Notes: generated from the letters alone by a model not told the origin. Counted from the stretch's first letter, positions 48,428 through 49,082 are shown. The stretch is DNA of 64,000 nt from an archaeon (GCA_043814055.1 JBDRKL010000004.1:64001-128000); one strand, 5' to 3'. Numbers and translations: made by a program.

Positions 48428-48492
48428 TGCAGTGAAGAAGTGAACACCCTCTGATACCGCCCAAAGATGATGAGTATGGTAGCTTCTGAGCA
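48428..48492 (+). ncRNA. Box C/D methylation-guide sRNA
   Basis: C GTGAAGA (48432), 12-nt guide, D' CTGA (48451), C' ATGATGA (48467), 12-nt guide, D CTGA (48486); short terminal stem TGC/GCA; TATA-like TTTATTAA at 48398. Confidence 0.85.
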
Positions 48493-49082
48493 CTCAATGA
48501 TTTTTTGGTCCAGCTTTTGCGCGAGTTTTGCGAGCGGAAAAGGTGGGTGCCAGCACCCTCTGATACCGCCCAAAGATGATGAGTATGGTAGCTTCTGAGC
48601 AATCTTTTTCCTTCCAATTTATCAAAAACGTCGGACGCACAGCGTCCGAGGCCAACGCGCTTCGCGCGTCTGGAGCTTGACCAAAAACAGTGCTGCTGCT
48701 TGATGTTTTTGAAGCAGCACGTGGCCGCTCTCCGCGGCCAGGCGGAGATAGCAGTAGCTTCTGAGCAATCGTTTTCACAAACTTCTATTGAGGCTTCGCC
48801 GATGGCGAATGCCTCTGCTCTGCCTCCGCGAGCAGGCGGAGCTTCTGAGCAATCTAAACTTTTATTTTTCACAAATTTGACCGAAGGCACCCGAATGGCT
48901 TGGTAATGCCACAGCATCACCAATTTTATGTGGCATGCTCTGCCTCCGCGAGCAGGCGGAGCTTCTGAGCAATCTAAACTTTTATTTTTCACAAATTTGA
49001 CCGAAGGCATCCTACTTGCTCGGTAGTCCCGCAGCATCAAAAATTTCTTGCGGGACAAAGTGCCGCCTGATTTTTCAGGCGA
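48493..49082. mobile_element. Stack of about five palindromic inserts separated by duplicated C/D sRNA 3' ends
   Basis: 48445-48492 repeated exactly at 48554-48601; shorter GCTTCTGAGCAATC copies at ~48757, 48841 and 48961; family-A cores at 48730, 48824 and 48944; 74-bp exact repeat 48816-48889 / 48936-49009. Confidence 0.88.

Follow-up and report, generated by a model that had tools for sequence, protein, structure and literature searches.

Probable serial insertion of small hairpin and pseudoknot cassettes at the 3' end of an archaeal box C/D sRNA gene

How can a single small-RNA gene come to be followed by a row of partial copies of its own 3' end, with a different insert between one copy and the next? 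This question is raised by positions 48,428 to 49,082 of a 64,000-nucleotide stretch of archaeal DNA (GCA_043814055.1, JBDRKL010000004.1:64001-128000), called the window below, to which all coordinates without a contig name refer. Here an intact box C/D sRNA gene stands between rps3ae and cca, and an earlier note on the window had read what follows it as an array-like locus, created by the use of the sRNA gene as a serial integration hotspot. We consider it likely, from the anatomy of the locus, that the 3' end of this sRNA was struck at least four separate times by protein-less hairpin or pseudoknot cassettes from families that are dispersed in the genome. Serial insertion is supported, but the sRNA is not a special attachment (att) site. 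The assembly has 979,685 nt in 14 contigs and is 82% complete, and statements on the genome, absences included, refer to it. Contigs (C), relatives' genomes (G) and their loci (L) carry our own numbers.

Repeats, stubs and inserts behind the sRNA gene

The 3' part of the sRNA, 48445-48492, recurs without a single difference (48/48) at 48554-48601. Further downstream, GTAGCTTCTGAGCAATC(T/G)TTTTC is found at 48588-48610 and 48754-48776 (22/23), AGCTTCTGAGCAATC is found at 48756, 48840 and 48960, and a tandem pair of 120-nt units (48816-48933 and 48936-49053) is identical over its first 74 nt. The 13-mer CTTCTGAGCAATC, with at most one mismatch, occurs five times within 530 nt at the locus; elsewhere on both strands of the assembly it has two matches, both unrelated and with one mismatch. 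Such clustering is far beyond chance.

The repeats divide the locus into the intact gene, four stubs and five inserts, see Table 1. The inserts are non-coding, measure 57-143 nt and all have the same orientation. Insert 3 has a 5' border that is uncertain by ~8 nt, and its bracket consists of AGCTTCTGAGCAATC plus TTTTCACAAAYTT, about 15-29 nt, of which the right copy has an 11-nt indel. Within the sRNA, the four duplicated pieces begin at the equivalents of 48445, 48479, 48481/3 and 48483, and they reach 0-40 nt past its end. A T run follows every stub, and the C box is found in the promoter-proximal copy only; without it the stubs cannot form a C/D ribonucleoprotein (RNP) and are therefore dead. 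If the inserts are taken out in the order 4, 1, 2, 3, each with one repeat copy, the sequence sRNA-ATC-(T)TTTTCACAAAYTT remains. As this stepwise removal restores a simple gene end, at least four events are needed, of which those with the two exact brackets (48 nt and 37 nt) should be the youngest.

Much of this had been described in the earlier note. The exact 48-nt copy and the later copies near 48754, 48841 and 48961 are present, and a D box does stand in every stub, giving one intact sRNA and then four D-box-bearing stubs. The length of ~14-17 nt given there for the later copies has to be extended once the downstream TTTTCACAAAYTT is included. There are indeed five different inserts, but they are built of hairpin and pseudoknot modules and are not simple palindromes; four of them lie in a bracket of sRNA 3'-end copies, and for the fifth no bracket was detected. 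The likeness to a repeat-spacer array is superficial, since each repeat is a piece of the target copied at that event. Compared with a CRISPR array, the repeats are unequal (15-48 nt), the inserts are dispersed repeats and there is no Cas1.

Table 1. Features of the sRNA locus and its surroundings in the window.
Feature	Position	Strand	Basis or remark
rps3ae (ribosomal protein S3Ae), upstream neighbour	47763..48392	+	Pfam Ribosomal_S3Ae, E 1.1e-49
Putative promoter, TATA-like box TTTATTAA, ~23 nt upstream of the sRNA 5' end	48398..48405	+	sequence reading
Box C/D sRNA, intact	48428..48492	+	boxes, orthologues, guide pairing, sub-threshold Rfam matches
C box GTGAAGA	48432-48438	+	sequence reading
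D' guide	48439-48450	+	12 nt
D' box CTGA	48451-48454	+	sequence reading
C' box ATGATGA	48467-48473	+	sequence reading
D guide	48474-48485	+	12 nt
D box CTGA	48486-48489	+	sequence reading
Insert 1, 61 nt, hairpin and T6 run at 5' end; bracket is the 48-nt repeat	48493..48553	+	repeat and alignment analysis
Stub 1, exact copy of sRNA 48445-48492; D', C' and D boxes, no C box	48554..48601	+	
Insert 2, 143 nt, composite: two-hairpin module, further hairpin, pseudoknot 48723-48747	48611..48753	+	
Bracket of insert 2, 23-nt repeat	48588-48610 / 48754-48776	+	22/23
Stub 2, GTAGCTTCTGAGCAATCGTTTTC, D box and sRNA 3' flank	48754..48776	+	
Insert 3, class-1 cassette, bulged hairpin GAGGCTTCGCC..GGCGAATGCCTC and pseudoknot 48817-48841	48785..48841	+	
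Stub 3, CTTCTGAGCAATC + TAAACTTTTAT + TTTTCACAAATTT, copy of 48758-48784 with 11-nt indel	48842..48878	+	
Insert 4, class-2 cassette, 83 nt, pseudoknot 48937-48961; bracket is an exact 37-nt repeat	48879..48961	+	
Stub 4, exact copy of 48842-48878	48962..48998	+	
Insert 5, class-2 cassette, different 3' module	48999..49084 (end approximate)	+	
Four tandem 64-70-nt hairpins, each ending CCACTCT(A/T)(A/C), upstream of cca	49172..49433	+	separate from the cassette array
cca (CCA-adding enzyme), downstream neighbour	49473..50834	+	Pfam tRNA_NucTransf2 E 1.3e-39, CAA_C E 3e-38

Related cassettes elsewhere in the genome

Each insert has relatives at other places in the genome. Insert 1 aligns to the 106-nt intron of tRNA-Gly(GCC) (62247-62427, minus strand) over 54 columns, with z = 14 against 50 shuffles. 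A module of insert 2 has 90% identity with C12:3597-3668 over 72 nt, and insert 3 has at least 16 relatives, the best with 90% over 62 nt (C12:3743-3804). Insert 3 also matches the element 32023-32095 in reverse orientation, with GAGGC/GCCTC there replaced by GGGG C/GCCCC, a compensatory change. Insert 4 shows 83% identity over 82 nt with the element behind archease (18209-18290), and insert 5 shows 74% over 61 nt with an element abutting a tRNA (53484-53544) and 74-78% with several loci. The earlier note had named the matches to the archease element, to the second nre element (32023-32095) and to the tRNA-Gly intron, and all three hold. In general the cassettes are mosaics of modules.

Could the array instead be one unit of sRNA tail plus hairpin, multiplied by unequal crossing-over or slippage and diverged afterwards? 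The tandem pair formed by units 4 and 5 and the single orientation of all units agree with such an amplification. However, inserts 1, 2 and 3 show no relationship among themselves or with inserts 4 and 5, and when tested, the dispersed copies (83-90%) aligned better to the inserts than these to one another. The repeats also differ in length and borders (48, 23, 15-29 and 37 nt), and where units 4 and 5 have diverged, compensatory changes in the hairpins stand directly beside flanks that are 100% identical, which uniform decay would not give. We regard amplification as a highly improbable origin of the locus.

Three loci with related cassettes were seen beside these comparisons. The intron of tRNA-Gly(GCC), a gene that default ARAGORN and Rfam at gathering score both missed, is built of cassette modules related to inserts 1 and 2, and a class-2 cassette with pseudoknot (62176-62246) adjoins the 3' end of the gene. 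A second array-like locus lies at C12:3560-3870 (minus strand). Between its cassettes, which are related to inserts 3 and 2, stand four copies of a TTGAYCAAAAA-CTCGCTnCGCTCG module and repeated CAAACTTTTTATT. At 31868-32110 two minus-strand pseudoknot cassettes stand before a 400-aa gene, each followed by a copy of the gene start (ATGAAAG, then ATGAAAGCACCAAA); these decoy starts precede the real one, and the reverse-complemented 5' end of the cassette puts GAGGT 6 nt before the real ATG.

In many cassettes the last 25 nt form a motif in which two stems, S1 and S2, are interleaved as S1(4)-3 nt-S2(6)-S1'(4)-2 nt-S2'(6), as in GCTC-tac-CTCCGC-GAGC-ag-GCGGAG. Exact matches to the pattern CTCCGSNNNNWGSCGGAG number 30 in the genome, with none for the backwards control; the three genomes of family f3 have 2-6 matches each, and the 13 other genomes of the phylum that were searched have none. 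Among 48 sites (36 in this genome and 12 in relatives' loci) pairing of S1 is seen in 174 of 192 cells, compared with 61-90 after a shift of the 5' strand by 1-3 nt, and 11 different fully Watson-Crick types of S1 occur; at near-palindromic sites the strand with the better S1 was kept, which biases these counts somewhat towards pairing. A scan free of sequence found 41 perfect sites with eight S2 sequences, where ~2 are expected by our own arithmetic, a reversed-genome control being invalid since reversal keeps complementarity. As S1 and S2 both vary with pairing kept, both helices covary. Together the two are possible only as an H-type pseudoknot; otherwise they alternate. Insert 5 ends in a pseudoknot-like AAAG-tgc-CGCCTG-ATTT-tt-CAGGCG (49057-49081) with three of the four S1 pairs. 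Searching Rfam with 48380-49480 at E values up to 5 gave no known family for the hairpins or the pseudoknot. At 53523-53547, a pseudoknot whose subtype is different (AGCT-tgt-CAACTG-AGCT-tg-CAGTTG) ends exactly at the first base of the tRNA at 53547-53661, and its central strand is the reverse complement of the D-arm AGCTCAGTTG of that tRNA.

The covariation shows that structure is maintained, which might be taken to mean that the array itself is functional, with hairpins, pseudoknots and D-box stubs selected as RNA elements at transcript ends (terminators, stabilisers, sites for L7Ae or another protein, or processing signals). The cassette strand folds slightly better than its complement in 27/41 cases (mean difference -1.0 kcal/mol), every stub is followed by a T run, and the cassettes keep a strict polarity relative to the neighbouring gene. 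This strand asymmetry (27 vs 14) is weak, though; the folded molecule may be RNA or single-stranded DNA, and a need for spread could explain the structure equally well. Moreover, the stubs allow no C/D RNP, relatives with the same sRNA and cca do without such elements, and the cassettes of congeneric genomes sit at non-orthologous sites. A selected array is in our view very improbable.

Duplication of the target is found genome-wide. A direct repeat with a score of at least 10 flanks 23 of 38 pseudoknot cassettes, compared with 3 of 300 random sites. The targets comprise the 3' ends of tRNA-Ser, -Leu, -Val, -Tyr and -Pro, the 5' ends of tRNA-Asn and tRNA-Ala, the start of the 400-aa gene at 32096, the stop of a 478-aa gene and one gene junction. 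Duplications range from 10 to 83 nt (20 nt of the tRNA-Ser 3' end, 18 nt of tRNA-Tyr, 83 nt of the archease 3' end) and are sometimes absent. The duplicated piece comes from the gene on the 5' side of the cassette in 13 of the 23 cases, from both sides in one and from the pseudoknot side alone in none; nine could not be assigned. Duplication is not specific to C/D sRNAs, as the cassettes do likewise at the ends of tRNA and protein genes. The hotspot of the earlier note stands in so far as four target duplications derive from the 3' part of the sRNA, but not as an att site of the tRNA kind.

Behind archease (17793-18203; region 17793-18373), an 87-nt cassette is followed by a second copy of the gene's last 83 nt (27 codons and the stop). 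Between the copies 18 of the 83 nt differ, 12 at third, five at first and one at second codon positions; there are no indels and both stops are kept. By our own arithmetic, decay in place would leave at most one second-position change with a chance of ~3%. One of the copies is probably an import, shaped as a functional gene end in a different lineage. A reading of this duplication as a bulge-helix-bulge intron was dropped, as by inspection direct repeats cannot form the 4-bp central helix.

The locus in relatives and the route of insertion

The order rps3ae-sRNA-cca is kept in 8 of 10 loci from the same order. From D box to cca start the distance is ~38 nt in G006 and 70-74 nt in G012, G008 and G004, compared with 983 nt here. 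The short gap in these four relatives means that the array is lineage-specific; the earlier note had named an invariant array in relatives as the outcome that would speak against its reading, and this outcome was not observed. In three congeneric genomes the pseudoknot cassettes have no flanks in common and occupy non-orthologous sites, from which it follows that cassette positions turn over. In metagenome contigs, a search with the Rps3ae protein gave 369 pattern matches, none of them confirmed, and a 27-nt sRNA pattern had no match there nor in genome contigs.

A second case was found in G002, a genome of another family. Behind its orthologous sRNA stands an AT-rich hairpin of ~90 nt, perfect over 23 bp and bracketed by GCTGCTGAGCCA and a T run with the D box included, i.e. 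a duplication of 12 nt plus T run. G002 contains 32 matches to this hairpin; the congeneric G006 and G010 contain none. Judged by this bracket, the orthologous sRNA was struck independently in G002 and its D box duplicated.

The sRNA-cca slot also holds cargo in some relatives. In G010 the D box is directly followed by an insert of ~520 nt that holds a 23S_rRNA_IVP gene between flanking CCAAT(A/C)CTTATCCT; G002 has an ORF like a (nucleoside) deoxyribosyltransferase, and G007 and G003 have unrelated ORFs without Pfam match. As an observation in its own right, the slot varies in cargo between conserved flanks in loci L015, L017, L018 and L019.

Integrative archaeal viruses and plasmids leave partial tRNA-gene duplications (attL/attR) behind. 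Disruption of tRNA genes by an integrating, recombinase-encoding element has also been proposed, in the part of PMC3293823 available. By analogy, the sRNA 3' end could be the attB of a virus or plasmid with a tyrosine or serine recombinase, and the inserts could be deletion remnants. Direct repeats of a small-RNA 3' end are the hallmark of attL/attR, and here too the small-RNA gene stays intact with an end copy beyond the insert. The copies of the archease end diverge as if one were foreign, like gene ends borne on an element, and the differing cargo genes of the four relatives, with the flanked insert of G010, agree as well. Against this, the tyrosine integrase family PF00589 has no match in the assembly, whereas 14/14 control genomes were positive, and the inserts (57-143 nt) have sharp conserved ends and no coding remnant. 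The same cassettes are found at dozens of different targets, which one att specificity cannot explain, and the repeat length varies between events at one site. Site-specific integration is therefore improbable as the source of the array, though direct repeats of the target gene end do surround the inserts.

An artefact of assembly, in which repeats, or alleles of a mixed population, were chained into an array that no single cell has, is the explanation to which we give the least credence. The assembly is fragmented and incomplete, and exact repeats of 48 and 74 nt could loop an assembly graph. However, each insert is unique between the repeats, and even the shortest path through the graph would hold every insert once; equivalent structures are present at many other loci of the genome and in the independent assembly G002. 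Such an artefact could falsify only the copy number of a unit.

We suggest that each insertion left a cassette between two copies of the target piece that it spanned (48, 23, about 15-29 and 37 nt). The promoter-proximal copy would then stay a complete gene, and the distal ones would become dead stubs with a D box. In a compact genome only those insertions would survive whose duplication rebuilds the gene end. As to the route, templated copy-choice or repair synthesis seems the likeliest, though we propose it tentatively: a nascent DNA end would leave the gene end, copy a cassette elsewhere and re-anneal upstream of its point of departure. This would give variable duplications without a dedicated enzyme, and cassettes with their flanks could later be exchanged between lineages by recombination. 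A trans-acting integrase with widely staggered cuts is a candidate that we find rather unlikely, and so, to the same degree, is recombinational integration of units of cassette plus target. The variable or absent duplications, the mosaic modules and the lack of an enzyme argue against a classical transposase or integrase, and would fit copy-choice or repair synthesis filtered by selection for intact gene ends. The divergence at archease needs exchange between lineages in addition.

Several observations weigh against serial insertion as set out here, or at least against its simplest form. No flank repeat is detectable at insert 5. Units 4 and 5 have in common 74 nt that include 27 nt of the pseudoknot, and the loop TGC is found only in inserts 3 and 4; unit 4 may come from local recombination, or from duplication and replacement, instead of a clean independent insertion. 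Genome-wide, 15/38 cassettes have no flank repeat of score 10 or more, and in a few of the 23 positives the repeat is a cassette module such as TGATCAAAAA and not target. In the hairpin family of G002, 5/6 copies inspected are without long flank repeats. The codon-position pattern at archease is not predicted by duplication in place and decay and points to import. No proposed mechanism predicts the polarity of the duplications without an extra assumption. Finally, a mobilising enzyme may have been missed in the incomplete assembly, and we infer insertion from the anatomy and from order-level relatives only.

Which known systems do the cassettes resemble? They fail the defining tests of each, having no integrase, terminal inverted repeats (TIRs), fixed duplication, Cas1 or reverse transcriptase. 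Like the palindromic elements of Rickettsia (RPEs) and mitochondrial double-hairpin elements (DHEs), they are short, dispersed, protein-less hairpin DNA. The same can be said of the GC clusters and repetitive hairpin elements of fungal and sponge mitochondria, according to the available parts of PMC4478555 and PMC2800124. All of these spread in compact genomes and are tolerated in and beside genes. To our knowledge, long variable duplications (10-83 nt) that rebuild gene ends, a covarying pseudoknot terminus and strict polarity are not described for any of these elements.

As in miniature inverted-repeat transposable elements (MITEs), the cassettes are non-autonomous, ~60-150 nt long, present in many copies and flanked by direct repeats of the target. 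Their ends (CTATNGRGGC... and ...GGCGGAG) are not complementary, however, the repeat search found no TIRs bracketing the inserts, and neither a fixed short duplication nor a parent transposase was found. Elements derived from IS200/IS605 (PATE, TnpB-associated) call for a TnpA or TnpB gene in the genome and insert without duplicating the target; here long duplications are present, and PF07282 (TnpB) gave only a zinc-ribbon match of 16.5 bits, below the cut-off, and Y1 transposase was not searched. The target duplication of casposons is fixed at 14-15 bp. Casposon and Cas1 integration, in the parts of PMC5137440 and PMC8464041 available, likewise takes place beside tRNAs or gene 3' ends with a comparatively long duplication, and repeated events give repeat-insert-repeat structures; the cassettes differ in having no match to PF01867 (Cas1) in the assembly, variable duplications, no TIRs and no cargo. 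With SINEs (short interspersed nuclear elements) and target-primed reverse transcription, as the available part of PMC6895275 presents them, they share variable duplications, a sharply defined 5' end and a structured 3' end directly next to the duplication. Unlike these retroposons, they have no A-rich tail and no demonstrated internal promoter, and the assembly has no match to PF00078 (reverse transcriptase).

The literature searched, part of it available only in extracts, describes no such archaeal cassettes. It is possible, though doubtful, that they form a new class of archaeal mobile DNA with a 25-nt H-type pseudoknot terminus, which would enter with fixed polarity, join the pseudoknot 10-83 nt inside a gene with duplication of that stretch, travel between lineages with a copy of the gene end and become tRNA introns when landing in tRNA genes, for which the intron of tRNA-Gly(GCC), related to insert 1, would be an example. 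The sRNA array would then be a time-ordered record, and the cassette family a concrete route by which archaeal tRNA introns arrive, whose origin is called open in the available part of 10.64898/2026.10.13.758758. If serial insertion holds, a 1-Mb genome of symbiont type (Undinarchaeota-like) would carry dozens of tiny structured cassettes, and essential gene ends would survive their insertion because the struck piece is duplicated. No other locus found in the assembly gave so rich a record as the sRNA locus, with four or five events in 600 nt, and together with the independent case in G002 this locus suggests that cassettes land recurrently at the ends of small-RNA genes. The link to a tRNA intron, the covarying pseudoknot and the strict polarity offer testable handles on the mechanism. 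In practice, stubs and cassettes can be a source of error for programs that find sRNA and tRNA genes, and they can break assemblies.

The sRNA gene and its neighbours

The gene has the features of an archaeal box C/D sRNA. C and D boxes are accompanied by internal C' and D' boxes (RUGAUGA, CUGA), the terminal stem is short (TGC/GCA), and both guide spacers (C-D' and C'-D) keep the usual ~12 nt. The A at position 5 of the C box is also found in orthologues (ATGAAGA). The D' guide forms 10 contiguous Watson-Crick pairs with positions 2620-2629 of the genome's own 23S rRNA (gene C12:9250-12211), where the context GGGTGTTCACCGGTTAAAGG...GAGCTGGGTTTAG identifies the A loop. The fifth guide base upstream of the D' box, the position expected to face the target, lies opposite the U of GGGU. 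We take this U to be the equivalent of E. coli Um2552 (U2552), and the D' guide is predicted to direct its 2'-O-methylation. Against rRNA, the D guide has no convincing target, the best match needing three G-U pairs. A reading of the D'-C' spacer as 23S sense sequence was given up, as the longest word in common with the own 23S is 9 nt, within chance.

At gathering score, Rfam finds two tRNAs only in the whole window and not the sRNA; this miss is weak evidence because the archaeal C/D models are genus-specific. Full-length matches exist below threshold, to sR14 (17.8 bits, cut-off 38, E 0.04) and snoPyro_CD (17.9 bits, cut-off 45). An orthologous sRNA with the same D' guide (GTGAACACCCT) lies directly downstream of rps3ae in 9 of the 10 relatives' loci of the order, and the D guide core GGTAGCT is kept likewise; none of 19 more distant rps3ae loci has an sRNA with that D' guide. 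Boxes, spacers, orthologues and guide pairing argue together that 48428-48492 is a genuine box C/D sRNA gene conserved across the order, as the earlier note had assumed. The A/T box TTTATTAA is presumably its promoter; a similar box is seen at equal distance upstream of the sRNA in relatives. A strict C/D sRNA pattern finds two candidates in the assembly, and the second (C12:49161, minus strand) has no tail copies.

The tandem hairpins on the cca side have a covarying lower stem of 10-13 bp (TGGAnnnGGTGGG... / ...nnnTCCA) and no Rfam match. The same hairpin array precedes cca with five units each in G007 (L015) and G003 (L017) and with two units in G010 (L018), and it is absent from G012, G008, G004 and G006. 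These hairpins could be a conserved structured RNA or a leader of cca.

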